From positions 1 through 32,000 of the forward strand of contig JBHLRO010000016.1 of the NCBI GenBank assembly GCA_048882505.1: DNA of 32,000 nt. The letters run 5' to 3'. The position numbers and the translations under genes were made by a program. Positions 6,898 to 32,000 of the stretch are shown here, piece by piece (position 1 is the stretch's first letter; every line of letters begins with the position of its first letter). Below the pieces are notes generated by a model. The model worked only from the letters and a program-made list of their open reading frames with translations. It ran no database searches and had not been told where the DNA came from. Origin of the DNA: Candidatus Thorarchaeota archaeon. GTDB lineage: Archaea > Asgardarchaeota > Heimdallarchaeia > Hodarchaeales > Hodarchaeaceae.

Positions 6898-7476
6898 TTA
6901 TCTTGCACTCAGCGCCACGCGTTCAATATCTTGTTTTCTTTTAATAGCATTCGAATTGAGGTTATTTGTAGAGGCTAAAATTAGTTGGTCGGCCAGTATT
7001 TCTTCAAGGGTTCGAACATTATTAAAAGTAGATTTTCTGGAGGCTTGGGCAAGTAAACGTAATGCGACGTCTACTCTTCGTTGTGGAGCGCTATCTACCG
7101 CGGTATGGTACACGATTCCACCGTATGAAATGCGGGTTGTCTCTTCTCGAGGGGCGCAGTTCACAATAGCATCCACAAGCACTTGGAGGGGGTTCTGATT
7201 CGTCTTTAATTCAATGATCTGAAGGGCTGTTTTCACGATACCAAGTGCGAGGATCTTTTTGCCCGTATTTTTTCCTGGACTCATAAGTTTGTTAGCCATA
7301 CGTTCAACAATATGTACGTGTGACTTATGGAATCGTTTATGCTCATGACGACCACCAGAATGAGGAACCATCCGATCTTTTAGATTGATATACCGGACTA
7401 GACTCATGTCTCGGATTTCAATGTCTTTAGAATTCCATAATCCGAATATTCTCATATCATCGGCGGCAGCCATCAC
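6898..7476 (-). CDS. rps7: 30S ribosomal protein uS7
   Basis: GGRHEHKRF, IVERMANKLM, PREETTRISYGG, AVDSAPQRRVDVALR, ERVALSAR. Start is GTG at 7476 or ATG at 7473, after GGTGA. Confidence 0.97.
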   Translation of the reverse strand: MMAAADDMRIFGLWNSKDIEIRDMSLVRYINLKDRMVPHSGGRHEHKRFHKSHVHIVERMANKLMSPGKNTGKKILALGIVKTALQIIELKTNQNPLQVLVDAIVNCAPREETTRISYGGIVYHTAVDSAPQRRVDVALRLLAQASRKSTFNNVRTLEEILADQLILASTNNLNSNAIKRKQDIERVALSAR

Positions 7477-7483
7477 ATCACCT

Positions 7484-7801
7484 TCACGATCTTAATTCAA
7501 TTTCCACAAAGATAGAACGAGATACATTTAGTCTGATTATCTGGCGCATAGTTCTATCATCTGCGTCAATATCTATCAGTCGTTTATGAATCCTCAGCTC
7601 ATAGGATTCCCAAGTCGCCGTTCCCTGTCCGCTAGGAGATTTCCTGACTGGTAATTTTAGTTTTCGGGTTGGGAGAGGAATTGGACCTCTCATTTTCACA
7701 CCTGATTTATCAGCAATTCTCTTCATTTCAGTGCATATACTGTCAAGTTGTCCAACATCAGTACTCATGAGGCGAATTCGAGCGACCGAGACCAAATGCA
7801 T
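7484..7801 (-). CDS. rps10: 30S ribosomal protein uS10
   Basis: ARIRL, GPIPLPTRKL, RKSPSGQG, RIHKRLIDI. Start shortened from the ORF track to ATG 7801 (or TTG 7795) downstream of GGTGA. Confidence 0.97.
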   Translation of the reverse strand: MHLVSVARIRLMSTDVGQLDSICTEMKRIADKSGVKMRGPIPLPTRKLKLPVRKSPSGQGTATWESYELRIHKRLIDIDADDRTMRQIIRLNVSRSIFVEIELRS

Positions 7802-7959
7802 AATCACCTTAACTAAATGAAAAACCACAGTGTTTAAAGTTTAATTGAGCAGTCTTATTGCTAAACTTGGGAGAATATCAAGCGTTTTTAATAGTACTCT
7901 CAGCGGGATAGATATCCGTGGATAGAGAGGAGGTTCACAGTCCTATAAGTAATGGGAAG

Positions 7960-8131
7960 CGCCGGGGAGGGGATTTGAACCCCTGAGTACATATGTACAC
8001 TGGCTATCTTCCCTTACATAAAAGCCTCAAGGCCAGCGCCGTTGTGCGTGGAAGGACTGAGTACCAGTCCGCTTGGCTATCGAGTTCTTTCCTTCAGCGG
8101 CAGTTTCGTGAGTGGAAGAGAAAACCCCGGC
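7960..8131 (-). tRNA. tRNA-Ser(UGA) with three introns (8/9: 8123-8079, 45 nt; 20/21: 8067-8043, 25 nt; 37/38: 8025-8006, 20 nt); no encoded CCA
   Basis: Acceptor GCCGGGG/CCCCGGC with G73; T-arm AGGGG-TTCAAAT-CCCCT; anticodon arm CTGGC-CT-TGA-GA-GCCAG; long variable arm GTAC-ATAT-GTAC. Each intron forms a BHB or relaxed BHB. Spliced length is 82 nt. Confidence 0.88.
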
Positions 8132-8154
8132 AAAACGGATGGCTAAGGTCAACA

Positions 8155-8616
8155 TTAGGCCCGTCCTGTTTTTATATTAAACATCATGAGTATTCCAAAG
8201 GTGGCAATGATCGCCAAGATGATACCTAATATTAGAAATACTGTCGATGTCCGCACGTCATAGGCAAATCTCGTCGAATGTCTGATCAAGTAGACGCCCA
8301 CGCCCCCAATTGCGAATAGAACAGCAGCAATCAAGGACTCTACCAAAAATTGCTCACTGGATGACTGAAATATTGGTACTAAGGCATTTTGAGTTTGTCC
8401 CATTGGAAGGGGGTTTTCAGTGAGGTCATAAATACCACCCGCCAAAATAAAGATCGTAAAGACTAAAATTAACCCTAGAATGTATTTTCCTGGAGCTTCA
8501 TATGGGAGCTGAATATCTGGAATTTTAAAAACCACCGTAGGTCGCTTCAATCCAGGTATCCATGGGAGACGGGAGCTGGACTCGCTTTCATCATCATTCT
8601 CTTGAGGTTTTGACAT
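8155..8616 (-). CDS. ostc: OSTC/DC2 (Ost3/Ost6 family) oligosaccharyltransferase subunit homologue
   Basis: Three TM helices. GGIYDL..NPLPMG and QFLVESLIAAVLFAIGGVG resemble OSTC GGIIYDV..EPPSVG and QYIMEGLASSFLFTMGGLG (recalled consensus). Confidence 0.82.
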   Translation of the reverse strand: MSKPQENDDESESSSRLPWIPGLKRPTVVFKIPDIQLPYEAPGKYILGLILVFTIFILAGGIYDLTENPLPMGQTQNALVPIFQSSSEQFLVESLIAAVLFAIGGVGVYLIRHSTRFAYDVRTSTVFLILGIILAIIATFGILMMFNIKTGRA

Positions 8617-8702
8617 ACTGTAACTCTCTAGGGGGCATAAATATGATCAGCTTAATTTCTTTTCGAGAAGGTATATATCAAGTTATCCCGTAAAAAAAAC
8701 AC

Positions 8703-9788: not shown

Positions 9789-9924
9789 TGGTGGACCGAC
9801 CGGGACTTGAACCCGGGGGCTCTGCCTGTTTCGGAAATCCACCCTTTTTGGATCAATTGCGAAGACAGCGTGATACCAACTTCACGTAGATACGAGTTCT
9901 CTCGCTCTATTTCACTATCGGCCC
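9789..9924 (-). tRNA. tRNA-Ala(CGC) with two introns (D-arm, best fit 14/15: 9910-9881, 30 nt; 37/38: 9857-9828, 30 nt); CCA encoded
   Basis: Acceptor GGGCCGA/TCGGTCC with the G3-U70 Ala determinant; D-stem GTGA/TCAC; loop TT-CGC-AA; T-arm CCGGG-TTCAAGT-CCCGG; canonical BHB helix TTCG/CGAA. Spliced length is exactly 76 nt. Confidence 0.92.
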
Positions 9925-17407: not shown

Positions 17408-18202
17408 TTAGTAATCTTCTTTGTGAGATAAACGAAGTTTTTTCCCACAACCAGAGCAATAGCGAACATCTTCCTTACCAAAGCAGTCGGAACAGAATGA
17501 AGCGAATTGTTGAGGTTTTATTTCCCCTATAATTTCACCATCTTTCATTTCATATTTTTTATCTCCGATTTGTGCGATTCCAGGGTCATGTGTAACTAAA
17601 ATGATTGTTTTACCGAATTCTTTACTCAAATTTGTAAAAATATCTGACAAAACCTTAGAATTTTCGCTATCCAATTCACCTGTTGGTTCATCCGCAAGAA
17701 TTAATTTTGGATCATTTGCTAATGCTACCAAAACCGCGATTCGTTGTCGTTCACCTCCTGATAAAGCATGTGGAGGGTGATTAGCACGATTTCTCATGTG
17801 AACCCATGATAAGAGCTCATTTGTTCTTTTTATTCTTTCCTCACGGGCCATCCCCAAAATTCTCATGGGGAGTTCAACATTTTCTTTAGCTGTCAAAATA
17901 GGGCTTAAATTTTCAAACTGAAACACAAAACCTACGTCTGATTTACGATATTCAGCTAAATCACCTTCAGATAATTCGTTTAGAATGCGATCGCAGCTAA
18001 GGATTGTTCCGGCAGTGGGATTATCAATTCCCCCGATTAAATGTAATAAGGTCGATTTCCCGCTACCCGAGACCCCCATAAACGTTATTAATTCTCCCGA
18101 ATATACTTCAAGATCAACTCGATTTACTGCGAAGATGTCAGATTCACCCATATGGAAAATTTTAGTTAAATCTGTTGTTTGCACTATTATACTTTCACTC
18201 AA
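17408..18202 (-). CDS. ABC transporter ATP-binding protein (LolD/MacB family) with C-terminal double zinc ribbon
   Basis: GVSGSGKST, LSGGERQR, LADEPTG, VTHD; C-terminal CSDC...CSGC. Confidence 0.95.
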   Translation of the reverse strand: MSESIIVQTTDLTKIFHMGESDIFAVNRVDLEVYSGELITFMGVSGSGKSTLLHLIGGIDNPTAGTILSCDRILNELSEGDLAEYRKSDVGFVFQFENLSPILTAKENVELPMRILGMAREERIKRTNELLSWVHMRNRANHPPHALSGGERQRIAVLVALANDPKLILADEPTGELDSENSKVLSDIFTNLSKEFGKTIILVTHDPGIAQIGDKKYEMKDGEIIGEIKPQQFASFCSDCFGKEDVRYCSGCGKKLRLSHKEDY

Positions 18203-18252
18203 CCTAAAACACCTATCTTGATGTCTAATTATCGATTAAATGGTAAGAAATA

Positions 18253-21099
18253 TCATTCATTAAACCTTAAACCTCTAAGGATATCTTCTTTAGCCCAATG
18301 CAATAATGGAATTATAGTCATAACTAAATGACAAGCAAACATGAGTATTAGTAATACTATAGATCTGGTCATAGGACCTAGGGTGAAAATATTGTTATAC
18401 ATATTGAGTTCGGGAGACATGGATTCAATATAAACTCCCAACGTAAAAAGACCTGATATTAACCCAACACCAACACCAAATAGTTCAATCAACATGAAAT
18501 ATCCTATATTTAATTTCATGATTGATTTGATCGACATTCCCCGAGAGCGATTAATGGAAATTTTTTGTCTTTCTCTATGTAAGATTGAAACATAAAACCA
18601 AGAAATTCCAAAAGATCCTAGTATGATTGTGAAAAATATTAAAACGTTAAAAATCTCAGAAATTTTCCCTTCAAATGAGTTCTGGTGGTCAGTAAGAGCA
18701 TCTTCAAGTATCTCGATTTGTAAGAAGGGGAAGTTATTCTTGAGAATATGGAAAAATTCTTTCCTGTCCTGAATTGTCATATTTTGGTTTAATCGAATTA
18801 GAAATGCGGTTTCTAAGTCATTGATACTACTAGTTTGATTGTTAATATAATCAAAATCACTTATGATCTTCTGAAACCGAAATTGACTTTCTTTGAATCC
18901 AAGACCAGGTAAAACGTCATAGAATCCTTCGACTGAGAATCTTATCGTTTCTTGAGTAATACCAGTTGATAGGGAAATTTCTCGGACTTCACCAGTATTC
19001 CAATGGTATTTTTCAAGAAATTCAAGTGGAACAATAATATTATTATTGCTTACAAGATTAATGAGATCTCCTGATGTTTTCTTGATTGAATATGCAATAT
19101 CACCAAACTTAATTGTACCTAAGTAATCTGTCGGTGATTTTAATGCAATTATTATGATGGGAACTGTTCCAAGAGAACCTGCGAAGAAGGATCCATGTTT
19201 AAAAAGGAAAAGACAAGAATTATCAATACTTTGAGAATTAATGTCTATAAAATCTTGAAACGCATCTGTTTCAAATTGATAGTATAAACCTGTAAGACGA
19301 ATATCTGCACCTATGTCTCTAACGATATACTTTTCTGATAATTCCTCATTTGTTGTCGAAATAAATACTAATGCAATAGATGAAGTAGTTATTAGACTAA
19401 CTAAAAATGCTAGTCCCAATGTTTGTCTTCCTCGCCGCCAGAAATTTCTAAATAAATGAACAGTTAGATCATTTAGAAAGAAGGCAAAAAATGGAGAGAA
19501 TAATCTCTCAATTCTCCTCTGATAATGATAAATTAACCCAAGTAATCCTATACTCAGGAAAAATGGAATAAATAGAAAAAAAACTGATAGAATCTTTTGA
19601 AGATTCATAAGAAGTAAACTCCAAACTCCACCAATTTCAAATATCGTCAAGAAAGCTAATACAAATCGTGAAAACACTAATAATAGAGGAAGAAGAAAGA
19701 AAAAACGCCAATAAGGAAAAAATTTCATTGTTAGATGGCTTTGTTCAGTCTGCAATATTAAATCCTTTATTGGTGTTTCGATTACTGGATAGACCAGCCC
19801 TTGTCCAAATAGGCCAATCATAAGCCCAATTAAACAATTGGTACTTATTATAATTTGAAAATCATTATAAAAATTCGAAAGTAAGAGATAGAAATTGATA
19901 TGGATAATAAACTGATTGATGGCCAGGAATGAACCTATCACCAACAGATTCGCTATTAGTCCTCCTATAAAACCCTCTATCGCTCCTTCAATTAAATAAG
20001 TGGTCAGAATGGATCGATTCCCTAACCCACGCAGTTTTAACATCCCCAGAAGTGGTCTTTCATTTCGATATCTCTGATGAAGGAAAAGAAAATACAAAAA
20101 TAATAACAGAAACATCAAGGCAAGTCCAAATAGGAGGAATATAAATGAAAGATCTGAGATTTTTGAATGAATATTTGTAATTCTGGCTCCTAAGTCACTA
20201 GACCAAATGATTTCTGCATTTAATGGTTTTATGGACTCTACTTTTTTCCAAAGATCATTATTTAAATATACATAGCGATCAATGATGGTAGTTATATTTC
20301 TTCTGTCCACAAGATGAAAATGGTCAACAACCACTGAAATGATCCCGTTGTTAACAATGGTATTAATGGAGACGGTTTGAAAGCTGGTGATCATGAAGCT
20401 AATATAGGTGTCAAGCGCCAAGATTGCGAAATCAACAAATCCTGGGTTTTTTCCTGGCTGTGTAGCGGAAAGCTTTGTAATTTCTAAGAACGCATCATCA
20501 GAAGGGACTAAATTCCAAATATCTCTAATTGTTAATTTGTAAGATGTTTGGGAGGTACTATCATTTGGCGATTCATAATGAAGAAAAAGAGAGTCTCCGA
20601 TAGTTAAATTTAATCTGGTTGCAGTAGTGCTTGAAATTATCGTTTCATCTTTATCTAATCCAATCAATCTAGAATAATCTATAGTAACATCATTCAAATA
20701 GTTGAAATACTCATAATTCAAACCAGAAACACCGATCGGAAGAACGTTGAAACCTGATCTATCTAATATGGTATCCCTACTCAATAGGAAGAGGCCAGGA
20801 AAAACTTCTGGATTGGGAACTAATTTGACAAATACTTTCTCAACGTAAGAAGTAGTGGCAAGACCATTTACAATCTCGGTAATGTTAGTGATGGGGCTAT
20901 CTCTATTTATTATTCTTAAATTAAAATCAATTGATATGGAATCAAGATCATCTGAAACCATACTTAATTGAACAGTACTAATGCCGGTGGTTAAACCCAC
21001 TATAATTGATGAAATAAAAGCAACAAGCAATACAATCATGATTGTTATGCTTTGGCGCCTTTTCATTCTCAGAAAAGCCATTTGCAATCCAAAAAGCAT
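18253..21099 (-). CDS. FtsX/MacB-like ABC permease (two FtsX-like domains)
   Basis: Multiple TM segments; GMLKLRG and NRSRGMS FtsX-type motifs; RDIGADIRL linker; large extracytoplasmic domains. Confidence 0.85.
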   Translation of the reverse strand: MLFGLQMAFLRMKRRQSITIMIVLLVAFISSIIVGLTTGISTVQLSMVSDDLDSISIDFNLRIINRDSPITNITEIVNGLATTSYVEKVFVKLVPNPEVFPGLFLLSRDTILDRSGFNVLPIGVSGLNYEYFNYLNDVTIDYSRLIGLDKDETIISSTTATRLNLTIGDSLFLHYESPNDSTSQTSYKLTIRDIWNLVPSDDAFLEITKLSATQPGKNPGFVDFAILALDTYISFMITSFQTVSINTIVNNGIISVVVDHFHLVDRRNITTIIDRYVYLNNDLWKKVESIKPLNAEIIWSSDLGARITNIHSKISDLSFIFLLFGLALMFLLLFLYFLFLHQRYRNERPLLGMLKLRGLGNRSILTTYLIEGAIEGFIGGLIANLLVIGSFLAINQFIIHINFYLLLSNFYNDFQIIISTNCLIGLMIGLFGQGLVYPVIETPIKDLILQTEQSHLTMKFFPYWRFFFLLPLLLVFSRFVLAFLTIFEIGGVWSLLLMNLQKILSVFFLFIPFFLSIGLLGLIYHYQRRIERLFSPFFAFFLNDLTVHLFRNFWRRGRQTLGLAFLVSLITTSSIALVFISTTNEELSEKYIVRDIGADIRLTGLYYQFETDAFQDFIDINSQSIDNSCLFLFKHGSFFAGSLGTVPIIIIALKSPTDYLGTIKFGDIAYSIKKTSGDLINLVSNNNIIVPLEFLEKYHWNTGEVREISLSTGITQETIRFSVEGFYDVLPGLGFKESQFRFQKIISDFDYINNQTSSINDLETAFLIRLNQNMTIQDRKEFFHILKNNFPFLQIEILEDALTDHQNSFEGKISEIFNVLIFFTIILGSFGISWFYVSILHRERQKISINRSRGMSIKSIMKLNIGYFMLIELFGVGVGLISGLFTLGVYIESMSPELNMYNNIFTLGPMTRSIVLLILMFACHLVMTIIPLLHWAKEDILRGLRFNE

Positions 21100-21116
21100 G
21101 ATTTTCCCGTTTTTTG

Positions 21117-24080
21117 TTAATCTCTAATATGGAGGTAATCGATAATCCTAGATCTGGTGTTCCAATAGTTTTGTACAAAAATACTTATGAAGTAAGTCAC
21201 TGTAAGAATCAATAAGAAACCGCCAATCTTCGACCACGGAAAAAACAAGGTCACTGGAATTATAGGCCAAGGTCTAATAAGCACGTCTTTGTAAACAAAT
21301 GCAGATGTTAGACCAAGCAATATCCCGAAAAAAGCTCCTAGGCTGTTGATGGAGAGCATTTCCACAAGAAATATGTTACGTATATCTCTTAAACTCAATC
21401 CTCGTGCTCGATAAATTGCTACCTCCGTTCTTCTTTCATGATATGTTTGAAAAAATGTTAAACTCAGTCCAAATAATGCCAAAACAAGAATTATAAAGAA
21501 AAAGGAATCCATGAGTATAATGATACTCCCCGATGCTGTGAATAAGTATGAAGAGAGGGTCTTATCCAAGGAGATTACTTCAAAGTCTTTAAATTCAGCA
21601 GTAATACTGTGATACAAATCTGTACGGATTGTTTGATTTGCTTCGGGATTGATTTTGATGAACCATGTCATTTGAGAATCAGGAGGGATATCCATTACGG
21701 ATTCTATATATTCAATTGAAACAATAAGTGATTTCGGAGGGGTAAAATTTTGTTGAGTGAACCCTGGGATAAGGTAATAGAAACCTGCGACTGTATAGTT
21801 AATCAATAATGTCTCCCCATTTGTAGAATCCAACTGAACAGGTAAAACAGAACCAATATCATGGTGAATATAGTCACTTTGGTCTATTTCAAGATTAGTA
21901 AATTCAATTGGTGCTAATGCTGTTGGGCTCTCTGAACTTAATTGGACAAATAACCAATTTGGTTCGGCTTCAGGTATGAAATAATCTTCAAAGAATGTAC
22001 TTGCTACATAATTTTCGGGTTGAATTGCTACAATCCCCGCTGGGTAGATAAAAGCGTACCCACGGTAGGAGCCATTATTTTCATAAGAATAATCTGCAGC
22101 AATAATATCACCGTCAATCCAGATCATCGGTGTACTTTCTTCAATATAGGATGAAAGATTATAAAGCAATGAAGGAGTAATATTCTTCATCTGTTCATAA
22201 GTGCTGGATATTCTAATATCAGATCCAATATCTCTTTTTATCTCCCGAATTGAAACATCTTGAGCCGATTGGGACAACATTATAGGGGTAATACCCATTC
22301 CAAAGGCTAATGCGGTTATCAATGCTAATTTGGAAAAATGTTTTGGTCTTCTCAGATAATTGTACCTCATAATCTCTTTACCACTTTCATTAATAAAATA
22401 TGAAAAAATCTGCATATATTTAGAAAAAATCTTTCTATTTTTGGTGACAATCAAGGTTAATAATAAAACCAAAAGGATTGGGAGGAATAATAAAGCTGCT
22501 GACATAATGTCCTTTGTTACAATGATAAACCCACTAAAAATTCCAGAAATGTCAGTAAGATTAATGATTTCAAGAATAATGAAACTGAGCGAAATGAATA
22601 GAAGAGGAATAATGACAATAGAGAGACTCTTTTGTTGATCTTCATACCATTGCTCCATGTTCGAAGATTGCATCTGAACAGCATCAATAGGAGTAGTCTT
22701 GATGATTCTCCGTGAAATGAAATAATTTATCCCTACTCCCAAAAACAATCCCAAAAAAGTCGCATTTACAATAAAAGAAGGAAGTTGTGAGATATAAATT
22801 GTTACCCAGCGAAGAATGTCCATTTCATTGGGAATGACATTATACAAAGCTAGAACAAAGATCAAACACGTAACAACGCTGGCTAGGGAGGCTACTCCCG
22901 CAATTAATGTTCCTTCAATCAAAAAAGACAATCTAATTTCTCTCTTGCCCAATCCTCGACAAAGTAAAATTCCGTATTCCCTGATTTGGTGACTAATTAG
23001 GATAGAGCGTAGAAACAGTGTTATGAGGAAAACAAGGATAATGATTGGTACTGAAATAGCCAATAATGTGCTTTGTAGGTTTTTTATATCAGCTTGATTC
23101 TTATCTAATTCTTTTACCAATAGATTTTCTGCAAAAAATACCGTCCCAGTAGGTAAATTTTCCCTGAAATTCTGAATTATTTCCTTTTCGATGGAATTTA
23201 GTAGAAGAGGAGATTTTTTCTGATTATATTCCGTAATTATTTGATCTCGGTTAAAGAAAATTGAAATGATCAATCGACTTAATAATTCCTTAACATAAAC
23301 CCCAGGAAGAGACTCCATAATGTATACTAAGGTTTCTGACTCTAAAATCACGAGTTCGTCTAAAACACCCTCATAATTATTGATAAATGGATTTCTTAAG
23401 AGATCTTTAGCAATATTACTTTTTGATGGGATGTAAACAATGTTCTTGATAATGAGGGGAAATGATTTGTTAAATAATGATTGATCTAATGCCCATGAAA
23501 AAGGATGGTTTATATAGTGTAAATAAATTGTGTCATTTATTTTTACATTCAATTTTTGGGCCAAATAGTGAGAAATAATTGTCTCATTTGTCTTCAACTG
23601 AACAGGGTTTTCCTTCTCAAATCTGAGGCCTAATAAGTTTGAATACTCCAAGAAATTCTGACTATCATACCCTACAAGATCAAGACGTTCTCCACCTTGA
23701 AACCTAAAATCAGAAGTTAACACCTGACTTGTATTAACCGTTAAATGGTGAATCAGATTTCCAGTTCCCAAATACCCTTTTATATGATACTTTATAACCG
23801 TTTTATTTGTATAGGGAGATTTTTCTGCTTCAACCGATAGATTATACAAGTTAGGGCGAAATTCGTCATTTGGAAGAGAAACTCCGAGATTTAAATCTGT
23901 AAAAACATCATCAATATCACGAAGTAAGATAGAGGATTGTAAAAAAGTAGTTCCATATGCAGTTCCAAACATAAAGGTGATAGAAAACAACATTGTAAGA
24001 AACATACTTAGAGTGTTCGATTTATTTCTCGTCAAGCGGCCCAAGCTTAATTTTAAGGCTATAATTTCAGAATTGGGCAT
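21117..24080 (-). CDS. FtsX/MacB-like ABC permease (two FtsX-like domains)
   Basis: EYGILLCRG and EVAIYRARG motifs, RDIGSDIRI linker; paralogous to 18253-21099. Confidence 0.87.
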   Translation of the reverse strand: MPNSEIIALKLSLGRLTRNKSNTLSMFLTMLFSITFMFGTAYGTTFLQSSILLRDIDDVFTDLNLGVSLPNDEFRPNLYNLSVEAEKSPYTNKTVIKYHIKGYLGTGNLIHHLTVNTSQVLTSDFRFQGGERLDLVGYDSQNFLEYSNLLGLRFEKENPVQLKTNETIISHYLAQKLNVKINDTIYLHYINHPFSWALDQSLFNKSFPLIIKNIVYIPSKSNIAKDLLRNPFINNYEGVLDELVILESETLVYIMESLPGVYVKELLSRLIISIFFNRDQIITEYNQKKSPLLLNSIEKEIIQNFRENLPTGTVFFAENLLVKELDKNQADIKNLQSTLLAISVPIIILVFLITLFLRSILISHQIREYGILLCRGLGKREIRLSFLIEGTLIAGVASLASVVTCLIFVLALYNVIPNEMDILRWVTIYISQLPSFIVNATFLGLFLGVGINYFISRRIIKTTPIDAVQMQSSNMEQWYEDQQKSLSIVIIPLLFISLSFIILEIINLTDISGIFSGFIIVTKDIMSAALLFLPILLVLLLTLIVTKNRKIFSKYMQIFSYFINESGKEIMRYNYLRRPKHFSKLALITALAFGMGITPIMLSQSAQDVSIREIKRDIGSDIRISSTYEQMKNITPSLLYNLSSYIEESTPMIWIDGDIIAADYSYENNGSYRGYAFIYPAGIVAIQPENYVASTFFEDYFIPEAEPNWLFVQLSSESPTALAPIEFTNLEIDQSDYIHHDIGSVLPVQLDSTNGETLLINYTVAGFYYLIPGFTQQNFTPPKSLIVSIEYIESVMDIPPDSQMTWFIKINPEANQTIRTDLYHSITAEFKDFEVISLDKTLSSYLFTASGSIIILMDSFFFIILVLALFGLSLTFFQTYHERRTEVAIYRARGLSLRDIRNIFLVEMLSINSLGAFFGILLGLTSAFVYKDVLIRPWPIIPVTLFFPWSKIGGFLLILTVTYFISIFVQNYWNTRSRIIDYLHIRD

Positions 24081-24180
24081 TACTGATCCTCAAATTTAAG
24101 TAGTAATATATTATTCATACCTCAATTACATCAACCTAGTGTGGATTAAAACTATCTTTATCCTTTCTGGTACATTTGTT

Positions 24181-24194
24181 GTACAAATTTGTAC
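24181..24194. promoter_or_regulatory. Perfect 14-bp palindrome GTACAAATTTGTAC, candidate operator
   Basis: Self-complementary; about 100 bp upstream of the permease start at 24080; a third GTAC at 24170. Confidence 0.4.
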
Positions 24195-24622
24195 TAAATG
24201 ATGATGAGCTTGTAAGGCACAAAGCCCATTCATTGTTACAGATACACAAAGTGTCTTGAAAGAAACCACGCTTTTGAAATAGAAAAATAAAATTACCTAT
24301 TCAAAGTAACTTCGAATCTTATGTCGCGCCCGAGCTGAATCAAGAGGATTGATCTCACTATTGCAATAGTTACTAGCTCTGAAAGTTTTTCGTTTACTTT
24401 CTGACTAGTTTGACACTTATGCGTCAAGGTGAGATTCATATAGCCCAATGAATGATAAAGGATATTTTTTTCCGTTCTTCATGGTTTTTAGTAGATAATC
24501 TTAGTTTTGGATTGTGAATAATCGTCCAGCAATCCTCGCGTATGGCACGCAACCACAAATCACGATTGTTACGTCTTTGAAAAAAAACGGGTTTAGCTTA
24601 ATAACTTAGGTTAAATAACTCC

Positions 24623-25183
24623 TTAGATGACTATTGTAGAAGTTACAGTTGCGTATCTAGTACCTACTAAGTATATATACACTTTTATCTTCGAATTTAA
24701 TTCAACTGTAATTCCGCCCGAGCCAGAATAACTGACCCAATCATTAGGTGTATCATCACGAGTGCCGCTTACCAAATAAGGATTTGAAACGGAGCCTGTC
24801 CAATCAGAATACCAACCATAGGTTCTAGAGTTTAATCCTACACGAAGTGTGTAACGGTTCCGAACATAATTTAATGTATGAATCCAAGGGGGGAAAAATT
24901 GGGTATTTTGTGCCACCCAATTAAACTTAATTCTGGTGATACGAGCGCGTACAATATCAAAGTCACCACTATATTCAACTTCAACTTTAACATATGAAGA
25001 GTAATCAGTCCCATGGTAAATATAATTAACTCCATAACTTGCATGATTAGGTGGGATGTCTTTTGTGTAAATGTAATACCAGGCGTTAACCCGAGCTATT
25101 GATGGTAACAATACTAATGCAAACAGTAGGGCTGAAAATAAAAGTTTTCGGTGAGTTCTCAAATTTCCATTCATTTTGAACAT
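24623..25183 (-). CDS. Secreted beta-rich, aromatic-rich protein (signal peptide, predicted cleavage VNA|W)
   Basis: Basic n-region (RTHRK), hydrophobic h-region, AxA-like site; AGGAGGT RBS upstream. Confidence 0.8.
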   Translation of the reverse strand: MFKMNGNLRTHRKLLFSALLFALVLLPSIARVNAWYYIYTKDIPPNHASYGVNYIYHGTDYSSYVKVEVEYSGDFDIVRARITRIKFNWVAQNTQFFPPWIHTLNYVRNRYTLRVGLNSRTYGWYSDWTGSVSNPYLVSGTRDDTPNDWVSYSGSGGITVELNSKIKVYIYLVGTRYATVTSTIVI

Positions 25184-25365
25184 AAACCTCCTTACTTTGC
25201 CTGTTCTTATAGCAAGTAAGAGGTTTTTCTTTTTTTAAGGATTTATGAACATCCTGTGATCATTAGGTGAACATAAAGTGAACAAAAGTGAAAATCAAAA
25301 ATAAAATAAACTCTGCTGATTGAAACAAGACTATTACAAGATTTATGAAGTAAGTACCATCTTGA

Positions 25366-25689
25366 TCATAGCAATCCTCTTTCATATGCTTTACATTTTA
25401 CTAATGGGGTTAATTGTGTTACATCTGGGAAAAGTGAGTAGAGTTTTCCCACCTGGTGATCCGTATTTAGACATGTAATGATTTGTTGTGTTTTTAGTGC
25501 CTTTAATGTCCTACAAATAGATGTTAAATGGATTGATTTCCCCTTAGCAAGATCAATTTGAACATCTCGAGCTGTTTTAATACCTTCAGACAATGAGATG
25601 AATACTTTAATGCGATTTACCCCACCTAAGATGAATGCTAATTTCTTGAGGAGTTTCTCATCTTTGATGAATGTACAATTCACCCACAT
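25366..25689 (-). CDS. Winged-helix (ArsR/MarR-like) transcriptional regulator
   Basis: NRIKVFISL...KTARDV...SICRTLKALKTQQII...GKLYSL wHTH pattern. Start is ATG 25689 or GTG 25683 after GGTGA. Confidence 0.8.
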   Translation of the reverse strand: MWVNCTFIKDEKLLKKLAFILGGVNRIKVFISLSEGIKTARDVQIDLAKGKSIHLTSICRTLKALKTQQIITCLNTDHQVGKLYSLFPDVTQLTPLVKCKAYERGLL

Positions 25690-25721
25690 TCACCTGTGTC
25701 AATTTTACCTACAGGATTTAC

Positions 25722-25737
25722 AATCCAAAATTGGATT
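25722..25737. promoter_or_regulatory. Inverted repeat AATCCAA-AA-TTGGATT, candidate autoregulatory operator
   Basis: Perfect 7-2-7 repeat 33-48 bp upstream of the wHTH gene. Confidence 0.45.
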
Positions 25738-25925
25738 CGATGATCAAATCGGCACAGCTCGTGAACTGGCGCCATAGTTTGCTCTTTCTTGTGTTACTCT
25801 TTTGGAATGTATTTCAAATACCAGTTTCCCAGGAGTGATGATGCCTGTCACTTGAATGGCTAGATTTCTTTTATTCATTCACTCTATAACTTACCGTTTA
25901 AGGGAGTAAACTAGCTAGAAACCAG

Positions 25926-26021
25926 AGGTTCGCAGAACCTGCCTACATTGAGAATTCTGCTGCGAGTGTGAATACATCGCTTGCCGGAAGTACGAAAAGC
26001 GAGTTTCTTGCTTGATTTTTT
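25926..26021 (+). ncRNA. Candidate structured small RNA (three hairpins followed by a T6 run)
   Basis: AGGTTC-GCA-GAACCT; GCGA(G)TGT-GAAT-ACATCGC; AAGCGAG-TTT-CTTGCTT; then TTTTTT. Confidence 0.3.
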
Positions 26022-29380: not shown

Positions 29381-32000
29381 ATGAAGATAAAACACCGATT
29401 TTTAAATTTTGATAAAAATATTCCTGTAATCCAATCTTCTAAGACTTGGCAGGAGGTACATCTCACTCGTCTGTTTGAAGCGATAGGTATTCCGTTTGAA
29501 AATCAGCGATTATTCGAAGTAAGTTTAGCTAATGGAAAAACACAGCGATATGTTGTGGATTTTTGGTTATCACCAGGGGTGGTCTTGGAGTGTGCAACTA
29601 CTCAGATGCAAAAACATTACGTGCCTCTCCGAAAGAAATCACTAGAACTCGAGGTCAAAAGTGGACATCTCAAGAGACATGATCCCGATTTGGTAGTATG
29701 GGTTCTCCTAGAAAGTCAACAATCGATTTCTAATGCATTCTTTCTCAAATTACGTACATTGATGCCCTCTGTGGATCAATTATTCGTCTCCCGTCACACT
29801 CTGCGATTGGCAATAGAAGAAGGTCTACGTTGCCCCGCAGCGGGAAGTTTCTATCAATGTGTATTTGACCAAGCGATATGTGAGTACCTGAACCAGAATC
29901 TAGAAGTAACTGAACTAGATTTTCCAGATGATCAGATCCGACATTTTACTTGGTTGTGTAGTCACATTTACAGCAGATGGGCAATCAATCATAGAGCGAA
30001 GAAAGCCTTGGATGTCTATCTGCCAGAGAATGGGATAAAAAAGAGAAAAAGAAAGAACCCAATTTTTAAGAAAGATACACCCACCAAATCAAATAGCGTA
30101 AAGGATCTGATAAATCCCCCTCGTCAGAGAAAAAGGTTGGGAAGATTATCAATTGAAGATATTTATTCTGAACTTGAAAATTCTGGAAGATTCTCGGAGA
30201 AGGTCCTCAGAAAGATCATGGATTTACTGTTTAAATACAGGTCACATTACGTAAAAAACCAACCCGTATTTTGGGACAAAGTTTTCAAATCTCTAAGAAG
30301 TCTTGGTCAACGCACAGAGATTTTGAATATTGAGAGGGACGAAATCGTTGAACTAAGGGCAATAGCTAATGAATTAAGGAAGTTTACAAGTCAATTTTCT
30401 AAGCAGACTTGCGATAGAGATGAAATATCTATACAGACAGCTCGTCTTTTCTACGATTTTATTGATGGAAAAATCTCTCTTTTCAGTAGAATATTCAAGT
30501 CTGGATCATTATCAGATGAACATCAAGAATCAATGTATAGAGCACTTTGCGCAGAATTAACAGGAAATAAACCAGACAGTATGGTTACAAGGATATTAAA
30601 GGATAGATATGAATCTACTCTTCTGATAAGAGAAGGAATTACAATAATCCGTACCCACAAATTCTGTGATACGAAGACTCATCTAGGAATTGTAAGTGAG
30701 GTTTTGGATTTAGATGCAAATTATCCCGTCATTTCTGATGATTATGTTCCCCTAAGTAACACGATCCTAAGTCTCGACATTGCCGATTTAAACAGGCTAA
30801 TCACTCACATTGGTAAAATTGATTATCTGAAAAGTTTTACTTTACACGTAATAGACGAAACAGGGAATTTTAGTTCATCCACATTGCCTGAGAAATTTAT
30901 TGGTAAAATAACCAAACATCTAGGTAAATTGACGGGCTTAAAAGATGAAGAATTATATCAGTGGTTTATCGACCTTTTTGCGGATGAAAGAACTTTTTAT
31001 TTTGATAACTTCGGTGATGCTAATTGGTTTAGGCAAGCTAGAAAATCGAATGAGTTATTAAGGCTCTATACGCAGCTTTATGAGACATTTGTAAAATTTC
31101 ATTACACTGAAACACCAAATAACGATCAAATCTTGATTAAGAAGGTCAGGAATACACTTAATAGATTCTTTGAAAATGCCGAGTCATTCAAACTATTTTC
31201 CTCCAATACCAAAACTCTAAGAGGTATATCTAATGATTACTGGCTTAACTGCCTTAAATCCATCAGCCAAGATGAACTGGGATATATCCTTCATTTTGAT
31301 TTTAAGGAGTTGCAGGAAAGAACTTCTTTAGAGCAAGTAAGGAACGGAAAAAGGGGATTTTTCAACAGATTAAGGTACAAACACACCACACGTAGTGAAA
31401 TTTATCCCGATCAATGGGAGGGTGTCATTTATGATAATATGGGGAAATTGGTAGGTGAATCATACCATAAATCCCAAAAATATGACTTTCGGATAAGAAA
31501 AGAAATCAGGTTCTGGAATAACACATTTCGAGAGAAGATCCTAAATGACCTCAAAAACATGGCTAGAATTAATTTCAAAAGATTTCCACGTTATCTTGAT
31601 AAAAACACGGAATTTGGGAGGTATTTAGTAAACATTTGGCTGGAGGCCGGATATCTAAGACCTGCAGAGTATCTGGAATCTCTCGTTACTCCACAGAATA
31701 ATCCTTTAAACTTATTAAAGGAAAAAAGGGTCAAATTTCGGGTAATTAAAGCTGAAAACATCCTTCTCAATGATTACGTTCTTAAGAATCCTTCATTTGA
31801 GTTAAACCAGTTTGTCCAGAGTTTTAACAATGACTATTTAATCAAGAAGAGTATTCAGAGTGATAGCATTGTCGAAGAAGTTATTGAAAAAGGGCTTCCA
31901 TATAAGTACTTGAGTGCGAGTACAAAAAGGCAAGTTCCAATTCCTAGACTATCGAAACGCCACGGAATTGCCTATGCAAATATCTTTAACGAAACCGAAA
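29381..32000 (+). CDS. Large protein (>873 aa, 3'-truncated by the window) with N-terminal PD-(D/E)xK / DUF559-Vsr-like nuclease domain; not in the ORF track
   Basis: Manual translation from ATG 29381 (MKIKHRFLNF...) has no stop through 32000. Motif QE25VHL...GIPFENQ...YVVD60FWL...VLE70C; KKRKRK linker at 30038-30055. Confidence 0.85.
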   Translation, partial: MKIKHRFLNFDKNIPVIQSSKTWQEVHLTRLFEAIGIPFENQRLFEVSLANGKTQRYVVDFWLSPGVVLECATTQMQKHYVPLRKKSLELEVKSGHLKRHDPDLVVWVLLESQQSISNAFFLKLRTLMPSVDQLFVSRHTLRLAIEEGLRCPAAGSFYQCVFDQAICEYLNQNLEVTELDFPDDQIRHFTWLCSHIYSRWAINHRAKKALDVYLPENGIKKRKRKNPIFKKDTPTKSNSVKDLINPPRQRKRLGRLSIEDIYSELENSGRFSEKVLRKIMDLLFKYRSHYVKNQPVFWDKVFKSLRSLGQRTEILNIERDEIVELRAIANELRKFTSQFSKQTCDRDEISIQTARLFYDFIDGKISLFSRIFKSGSLSDEHQESMYRALCAELTGNKPDSMVTRILKDRYESTLLIREGITIIRTHKFCDTKTHLGIVSEVLDLDANYPVISDDYVPLSNTILSLDIADLNRLITHIGKIDYLKSFTLHVIDETGNFSSSTLPEKFIGKITKHLGKLTGLKDEELYQWFIDLFADERTFYFDNFGDANWFRQARKSNELLRLYTQLYETFVKFHYTETPNNDQILIKKVRNTLNRFFENAESFKLFSSNTKTLRGISNDYWLNCLKSISQDELGYILHFDFKELQERTSLEQVRNGKRGFFNRLRYKHTTRSEIYPDQWEGVIYDNMGKLVGESYHKSQKYDFRIRKEIRFWNNTFREKILNDLKNMARINFKRFPRYLDKNTEFGRYLVNIWLEAGYLRPAEYLESLVTPQNNPLNLLKEKRVKFRVIKAENILLNDYVLKNPSFELNQFVQSFNNDYLIKKSIQSDSIVEEVIEKGLPYKYLSASTKRQVPIPRLSKRHGIAYANIFNETE

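Follow-up and report, generated by a model that had tools for sequence, protein, structure and literature searches.

Asgard genomes in which 92–95% of the tRNA genes are interrupted were described in 2024 (Valentin-Alvarado et al., PMC11291895), and up to five intervening sequences per Asgard tRNA gene have been reported in a survey that also found that annotators miss 30% and that most Asgard genomes encode two EndA paralogs (Goswami et al. 2026, bioRxiv 10.64898/2026.10.13.758758). With Asgard genes of up to five inserts documented in these two works, the statement in the original prediction for the locus examined here, that multi-intron tRNAs are known mainly from Thermoproteales, is outdated. 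In the available parts of PMC4090602, the sites named for tRNA introns are 20/21, 22/23, 25/26, 29/30, 30/31, 45/46, 53/54, 56/57, 59/60 and 3/4, followed by 'etc.', and 8/9 is not named there. In the three-intron tRNAs of Cyanidioschyzon merolae, which are interrupted in the D-arm, at 37/38 and in the T-loop, the order of removal tracks the free energy of the motifs, the 37/38 motif being the weakest (Soma et al. 2013, PMC3728597), and archaeal 'nested' introns are known whose motif forms only after another intron has been removed (PMC3728597). The gene described below belongs to a type, the multi-intron tRNA, that earlier work has documented in Asgard archaea; what sets it apart is the splice signal of its first intron, which uses the 5' strand of the tRNA itself and, as modelled, a conserved segment of the transcript leader.

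The host is a Hodarchaeales (Heimdall-group Asgard) archaeon, represented by an assembly of 4.3 Mb in 83 contigs that is 94.5% complete. In the window (the whole stretch of DNA analysed, 32,000 nt), the minus strand from 8131..7960 (172 nt) constitutes a tRNA-Ser(UGA) gene with three introns and four exon pieces (Table 1). Read along this strand, the layout is GCCGGGGT, a 45-nt insert, AGCCAAGCGGAC, an insert of 23–26 nt, (A)ACGGCGCTGGCCTTGAG and a 20-nt insert, followed by AGCCAG, the GTAC/GTAC variable arm, AGGGGTTCAAATCCCCT, CCCCGGC and G. Both the identity and the number of introns had been predicted, and when the three inserts were removed, ARAGORN called the spliced sequence tRNA-Ser(tga) at every boundary variant tried, and its cloverleaf is a normal class II one. 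The features of a class II Ser(UGA) tRNA are present, namely a 7-bp acceptor stem, UGA in a 7-nt loop, a long variable arm and the T-loop TTCAAAT; U8, A14, G18G19 and the discriminator G73 at the end of exon 4 can also be read in the sequence, and CCA is not encoded. The expectation that automated tools would lose or truncate the gene was likewise correct. Over the whole window, default ARAGORN and Rfam at the gathering score returned nothing for the unspliced gene; loosening the threshold of the Rfam tRNA model gave 16.8 bits (cut-off 29) for the 3' exon alone, a sub-threshold score that is expected because the gene is interrupted, and ARAGORN -i misnamed the locus as a truncated tRNA-Tyr(gta), c[7959,8077].

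Table 1. Coordinates in the window of the parts of the tRNA-Ser(UGA) gene and of its 5' leader
Feature	Position	Strand	Remarks
5' leader -2..-8 (TCCGTTT, RNA sense)	8133..8139	-	predicted to pair with A13-A20 of exon 2
Exon 1, G1-U8, GCCGGGGT	8124..8131	-	acceptor 5' strand and U8; C3-G6 double as BHB-1 central helix
Intron 1, 45 nt, site 8/9	8079..8123	-	strict hBHBh'; absent exactly from ortholog L008
Exon 2, A9-C20a, AGCCAAGCGGAC	8067..8078	-	D-stem 5' strand and D-loop
Intron 2, 23 nt, D-loop site 20a/20b	8044..8066	-	relaxed BHB
Intron 2, alternative register (original prediction), 25 nt, site 20/21	8043-8067	-	
Exon 3, N20b-G37, AACGGCGCTGGCCTTGAG	8026..8043	-	D-stem 3' strand, anticodon stem 5' strand, anticodon UGA
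Intron 3, 20 nt, canonical site 37/38	8006..8025	-	relaxed BHB
Exon 4, A38-G73	7960..8005	-	anticodon stem 3' strand, long variable arm (GTAC/GTAC), T-arm, acceptor 3' strand

Searches of the genome with blastn-short, ARAGORN -i and the Rfam tRNA model, together with a census of acceptor and T-arm sequences, uncovered no second Ser(UGA) gene; the census is blind to any gene interrupted in its T-arm or acceptor stem. The same searches did not find Ser(CGA) or Ser(GGA) either, indicating that the tRNA inventory is incomplete. Many other tRNA genes of this genome are interrupted, as judged from blastn-short, ARAGORN -i and the census, and among the genes visible to the census no other 8/9 intron was present. 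Run on the whole genome, ARAGORN -i reported several implausible tRNAs with introns of 700–1800 nt (e.g. C11 1510-3410 and C15 46744-48205) and called no Asp, Phe, Trp, Tyr, Ser(CGA) or Ser(GGA), and the inventory obtained with standard tools is therefore unreliable for this genome. Elsewhere in the window, at 9792-9924 on the minus strand, a tRNA-Ala(CGC) gene with G3.U70 carries two introns of 30 nt each, one in the D-arm and one at 37/38; it was missed by default ARAGORN and Rfam, and ARAGORN -i calls it Ala(cgc) once the D-arm insert has been removed, with CCA apparently encoded after A73. Two candidate 5' halves (GCGGGGG... and GCGGGGA...) turned up in the census on the minus strand of C18:67963-68254; both fit the acceptor 3' strand of one tRNA-Leu-like 3' half, which could reflect genes in tandem or an extra copy of the 5' half.

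The tRNA-Ser(UGA) gene has an OST3/OST6-like ORF (8155-8616) on one side and the S10 and S7 ribosomal protein genes on the other; all of them lie on the minus strand, and the gene order OST3-like/tRNA/S10 is common to 17 related loci. The ORF, located just upstream of the tRNA, has a weak Pfam match to OST3/OST6, a eukaryote-type oligosaccharyltransferase subunit (E 1.3e-5, 25.2 bits, cut-off 27). Its stop codon lies merely 24 nt ahead of G1, which implies either that the tRNA promoter is within the ORF or that the ORF and the tRNA are co-transcribed. Regarding base composition, G+C is 0.32–0.36 at 18001-26000, as compared with 0.39–0.47 across most of the remaining window, and is also low (0.35) in the last 2 kb (30001-32000).

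Orthologous genes were matched in 17 of the 21 congeneric genomes searched and were read directly. Exons 1–3 are 97–100% identical to those of the orthologs, except for L014 at 89%, while the three introns are 38–64% identical, near the level of unrelated sequence, and the flanking proteins are about 62–68% identical across the genus. All strain substitutions within the gene in two other metagenomes (7/7) fall in introns, and the four DNA contig sets compared at the locus contain strain substitutions alone and no joints. A search for RNA runs covering positions 7400-8700 of the window returned none. Near-invariant exons, diverged introns and the failure of our searches to find another Ser(UGA) gene together indicate that the gene is functional and that its inserts must be removed. 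A decaying pseudogene, or a chance tRNA-like sequence, whose inserts stay unspliced has a parallel in the relative G012, where a decayed copy that lost the acceptor 3' strand lies beside an intact one; against this, the cloverleaf is intact here, synteny is conserved, the exons have stayed nearly unchanged next to proteins that have diverged, and the assembly that yielded no other Ser(UGA) gene is close to complete, making such an explanation extremely improbable. We are nearly certain that the locus is a real, functional three-intron tRNA-Ser gene, and it is an essential-looking one.

With respect to the processing enzymes, the genome encodes RtcB and two EndA paralogs, a catalytic one with Tyr/His/Lys and another without the His; the two EndA subunits are encoded at C18:41065-41613 and C18:72020-72661. 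By analogy with characterized enzymes, the host EndA would be of the alpha+beta, relaxed-specificity type, with a substrate range taken from the literature, in which (alpha-beta)2 EndA cleaves non-canonical, relaxed motifs (PMC3239211, PMC5829648).

The boundaries of the first intron are exact. In the ortholog L008/L060, GCCGGGGT is directly joined to AGCCAAGCGGAC with no insert, which delimits the 45-nt insert precisely at the predicted positions, 8123-8079. Placement at 8/9 is the only one that gives U8-A9 in every ortholog; placement at 7/8 yields an identical product in this gene alone. The BHB predicted at this site (BHB-1) proved to be as textbook as proposed, with a central helix C3GGG6/CTCG, bulges GT^T and AT^A, an inner stem TTCT(C)TTCC/GGAAAGAA and outer pairs G1-C11 and C2-G10, and it does occupy the acceptor 5' strand and G10/C11. 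Scoring assumed a 4-bp central helix and 3-nt bulges that are cleaved behind their second base, a geometry that, when applied to the 59/60 intron of the relatives, correctly gives the known T-arm of the mature tRNA; BHB-1 scored 4/4 in the central helix (H2), four contiguous pairs in the inner stem (H3) and two pairs in the outer helix (H1). A box C/D guide inside intron 1 was also considered and was set aside, as the intron is too short and box C is absent.

Strict BHBs arise by chance at about 2.4 per shuffled 188-nt precursor, and the motif was accordingly rejected as stand-alone evidence. At one pre-specified boundary pair, the probability of a strict BHB is about 2.5e-4, and a strict hBHBh' sits on the 8/9 boundaries in 14 of the 15 aligned intron-bearing genes; among the 13 that were scored, H2 is 4/4 in 12 and H3 has at least 2 pairs in all. 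In the 15-sequence alignment, 96% of the cells paired, as compared with 24–43% when the partners were slid, and the value for the leader helix (see below) is 97%. H3 includes three pairs with compensatory changes, while variation in H2 is restricted to GC<->GU. The motif is thus kept across relatives by compatible and compensatory substitutions, as is characteristic of an EndA-type intron; introns 1, 2 and 3 all qualify as such, intron 1 with a strict motif and introns 2 and 3 with relaxed ones (central helix 3/4). Taken together, these results make it very probable that the 8/9 intron is removed through the BHB described.

The original prediction did not include the 5' leader, and the helix that we describe here was added by the present analysis. 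The 11 bases ahead of G1 (CCATCCGTTTT) are nearly invariant in all genes bearing intron 1, while the sequence upstream of them and intron 1 itself are variable. Positions -8..-2 can pair with A20..A13 without gaps and in register with G1-C11 and C2-G10, with a single U.C mismatch at -1/12, which would give BHB-1 an outer helix of 9 pairs instead of 2. As deduced from the DNA, the leader bases -8..-2 may not all be present in the RNA. One could explain the conservation of the leader otherwise, with the same gene and the same three EndA introns, if the leader were inert and its bases were kept as promoter, initiator or RNase P signals or by inheritance, with no fixed order of splicing and EndA capturing the BHBs as they form. 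This account, which we consider rather unlikely, draws support from the intron-1-less clade L013/L016/L017, nested among carriers, in which the leader is retained (with A-5/T16), and from the occurrence of comparable leader/D-region complementarity (at least 7 contiguous pairs) in 3 of the 33 other tRNA genes of this genome and in 1.4% of random leaders. It does not account for the way in which the helix continues the G1-C11/C2-G10 register, nor for its persistence in all 15 aligned intron-bearing genes with compatible changes only: the pair -5/16 is G-C in 12, A-U in 2 and G.U in 1, the switch from G-C to A-U being probably a single evolutionary event, and the pair -4/15 has changed from U.G to C-G twice. 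Also against it, the helix is lost in the four intron-1-less genes L008/L060, L056, L063 and L012 copy 2, which have unrelated leaders, and the leader sequence is not shared by the other tRNA genes of the genome. A copy of the acceptor strand that might act as a decoy was also looked for, and the 150 nt upstream of this gene contain none; the weak hits at -64 in one clade belong to the coding region upstream.

Folding calculations bear on both explanations of the leader. The helix was present in the MFE structure of the 5' domain in 13/13 orthologs folded. In the isolated 76-nt 5' domain of this gene, the strict BHB (-20.4 kcal/mol) lies only 0.6 kcal/mol above the MFE (-21.0 kcal/mol), and the stability of the domain does not differ significantly from that of shuffled sequences (z = -1.12), a result that counts in favour of an inert leader. 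In the full transcript, the MFE was -60.7 kcal/mol, as compared with -52.5 kcal/mol with BHB-1 enforced; the acceptor stem dominates this equilibrium fold, with a probability >0.93, which also counts in favour of an inert leader, and BHB-1 has a probability of about 0, so that its formation needs co-transcriptional folding or capture by the enzyme. In the same full-length MFE, the 5' arm of intron 1 (TTCTCTTCC, 8114-8122) pairs with a complementary 3' part of intron 3 (GGGAAGA, 8008-8014, minus strand) and neither splice motif is formed; this pairing may be a misfolding trap or due to chance.

The energetic cost of BHB-1 depends strongly on the leader. In the primary transcript it was 8.2 kcal/mol with the leader and 13.1 kcal/mol without it, a difference of about 5, while BHB-2 and BHB-3 cost 6.8 and 6.2 kcal/mol, respectively. 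Over the partly spliced states, BHB-1 cost 4.4–8.2 kcal/mol with the leader, which falls in the range of BHB-2 and BHB-3 (2.9–7.2 kcal/mol), and 10.7–14.8 kcal/mol without it. An inert leader is compatible with the small differences, of a few kcal/mol, between orders for the three motifs, but it would leave the 8-nt first exon held by 2 pairs within a motif costing 13 kcal/mol. With BHB-1 in the range of the other two motifs when the leader is present, these values support the removal of intron 1 before RNase P acts. Splicing ahead of RNase P had been part of the original prediction, and this part is supported, for a different reason: the conserved leader would complete the outer helix at 8/9 and also cover G15-G19, the strand required by the D-loop motif. 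We give an even chance to the leader helix being functional, with splicing at 8/9 preceding RNase P. As a more detailed and tentative proposal, to which we assign somewhat below even chances, the leader would be a dedicated cis 'splint' that builds the 9-pair outer helix, tethers the 5' fragment for RtcB, masks the D-loop strand, sets the order intron 1, RNase P, D-loop intron, co-evolves with the intron and decays after its loss.

The second intron is present in every ortholog, and its boundary rests on BHB geometry. Its central helix is formed by G15 C16 G18 G19 against CTGT/CTGC/TCGT. In the 20a/20b register, H2 is 4/4 in 13 of the 17 orthologous genes (14/19 when the partial L019 and the decayed L012c1 are counted), while in the 20/21 register of the original prediction it reaches at most 3/4 in those genes; in the present gene both registers tie at 3/4. 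The mature tRNA would be 84 nt long with a 23-nt intron 2 and 82 nt with a 25-nt one, and the 84-nt product retains A21 and has a D-loop equal in length to that of the Ser(GCU) of the genome. Thus, the D-loop intron exists as predicted, while its proposed length of 25 nt and the 82-nt product are disfavoured by the orthologs, and intron 2 is better placed at 8066-8044 (20a/20b, 23 nt). For intron 3, the central helix is 3/4 with a G35.G mismatch, and this motif is relaxed in most orthologs.

The original prediction further held that the introns must be spliced in a set order, since the 8/9 and D-loop BHBs would compete for G10 and C11 (through G10-C25 and C11-G24 in the latter), with intron 1 leaving first. 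G10 and C11 do belong both to the outer helix of BHB-1 and to the D-stem, and the cost of BHB-2 decreases from 6.8 to 5.1 kcal/mol once intron 1 has been removed, as such an order would have it. However, the core of BHB-2 consists of G15 C16 G18 [G19] with the 3' part of the intron, plus GG/CC, and does not use G10/C11; the D-stem lies outside this core, set off from it by a 2x2 mismatch (A14.A21 and A13.C22), and enforcing it on BHB-2 raises the cost only from 6.8 to 8.3 kcal/mol (+1.5) in the primary transcript and by nothing (+0) after removal of intron 1 or 3. The relation also works in the opposite direction, BHB-1 being cheaper after removal of intron 2 (4.4 vs 8.2 kcal/mol), and the alpha+beta EndA, the relaxed type proposed for this host, accepts motifs without an outer helix (PMC3239211). 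The cores of BHB-1 and BHB-2 share no bases, the conflict being confined to the outer helices, and the order of introns 1 and 2 is therefore not forced. An order imposed by competition for G10 and C11 is thus improbable. More generally, with modelled motif costs shifting by 1–4 kcal/mol depending on the splicing order, a fixed order among the three introns is plausible, not compelled, and in our judgement doubtful. A distinct conflict involves the leader helix: by covering G15-G19 and G10/C11, it competes both with the D-stem and with the central helix of BHB-2.

Taken together, our results make it likely that the locus is explained by three EndA-type introns, leader-aided splicing at 8/9 and the pathway that follows. 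As the first ~76 nt emerge, leader positions -8..-2 together with G1-C2 would base-pair with A20..A13 and C11-G10, C3-G6 would pair with the last-but-two four bases of the intron, and the intron ends would form the inner stem, thus presenting a strict hBHBh' whose cleavage sites follow U8 and precede A9. Cleavage by the alpha+beta EndA would come next, and the 9-pair helix between leader and exon 2 would tether the leader and the 8-nt exon for ligation by RtcB. The acceptor stem would become stable only after that ligation, whereupon RNase P would remove the leader and the relaxed D-loop motif could make use of the freed G15-G19 and G10-C12. Removal of the 37/38 intron could take place at any time.

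The history of the gene was followed on a tree of the two flanking proteins, with a midpoint root. The 8/9 intron is found on both sides of this root and is missing twice, from the L008/L056/L063 group and from the nested L013/L016/L017 clade, a distribution that indicates that it is old in the genus and has been precisely lost at least once. The relatives also bear a textbook 59/60 T-loop intron in tRNA-Ser(UGA), and two orthologs have four introns (8/9, D-loop, 37/38 and 59/60), one of them complete over 221 nt (L064:1476-1696, CP070665.1) and the other cut by a contig end (L019, G002). In G012 (L012/L059), there are two tandem tRNA-Ser(UGA) copies about 235 nt apart: copy 1 carries the 8/9 intron and has a mutated acceptor strand (GCTGGGA), its 3' acceptor strand being the one that is lost, while the intact copy 2 lacks the 8/9 intron and has the T-loop intron. 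This pair looks like a decaying gene replaced by a differently interrupted allele.

These observations are relevant beyond this gene. Among the organisms sampled, the Heimdall group of Asgard archaea is the nearest to eukaryotes, and essential tRNA genes in its genomes escape standard tools, which distorts tRNA inventories and inferences about codon usage. Nature provides a clean test case in the 8/9 intron: its motif is incompatible with the acceptor stem, the exon ahead of it is just 8 nt long, and the relatives offer versions of one gene without the 8/9 intron, with three introns and with four. If the leader helix is functional, it would provide a simple rule for the survival of introns near the 5' end of a tRNA and would explain how a transcript can itself encode the order of its processing, with EndA/RtcB acting ahead of RNase P.

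Compared with the multi-intron tRNAs described in Asgard archaea (PMC11291895; bioRxiv 10.64898/2026.10.13.758758), the gene is similar in having several short BHB-type inserts, many of them non-canonical in those tRNAs, and a D-arm insert, in being missed by standard annotators, in the presence of two EndA paralogs and in the gain and loss of introns between close relatives. Unlike this gene, those of the two works centre on Atabeyarchaeia and on Jordiarchaeia/Freyrarchaeaceae, and acceptor-stem and junction sites form a small 'other' class there. Neither PMC11291895 nor the main text of the preprint, in the portions available, describes an 8/9 intron or an outer helix built by a leader, and the supplementary tables may list one; phrase searches of the literature on 8/9 introns, whose reach does not extend to the main tRNA intron catalogues, returned nothing relevant. 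As in the Thermoproteales, according to the accessible parts of PMC4090602 and PMC4033280 (citing Sugahara 2008), where up to three BHB introns per gene and an alpha-beta EndA are found, the present gene combines three introns with two EndA paralogs. The 3/4 intron of that group, as far as those parts describe it, resembles the 8/9 intron in that its motif uses acceptor-strand bases and, for 3/4, necessarily the leader; such use of bases implies that splicing precedes 5' maturation. By the same sources, the Thermoproteales differ in belonging to a different phylum and in that the 3/4 motif needs the leader, whereas here the leader only lengthens the outer helix and the central helix is independent of it. 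C. merolae shares three-intron tRNAs with this locus, but it is a eukaryote, its evidence comes from RT-PCR, and neither a role of the leader nor an 8/9 intron is part of its system. In the split tRNA genes of Nanoarchaeum equitans and Desulfurococcales, complementarity outside the tRNA joins two pieces for BHB formation and ligation. There the pieces are separate transcripts, while here the putative 'splint' would be the cis leader of one transcript.
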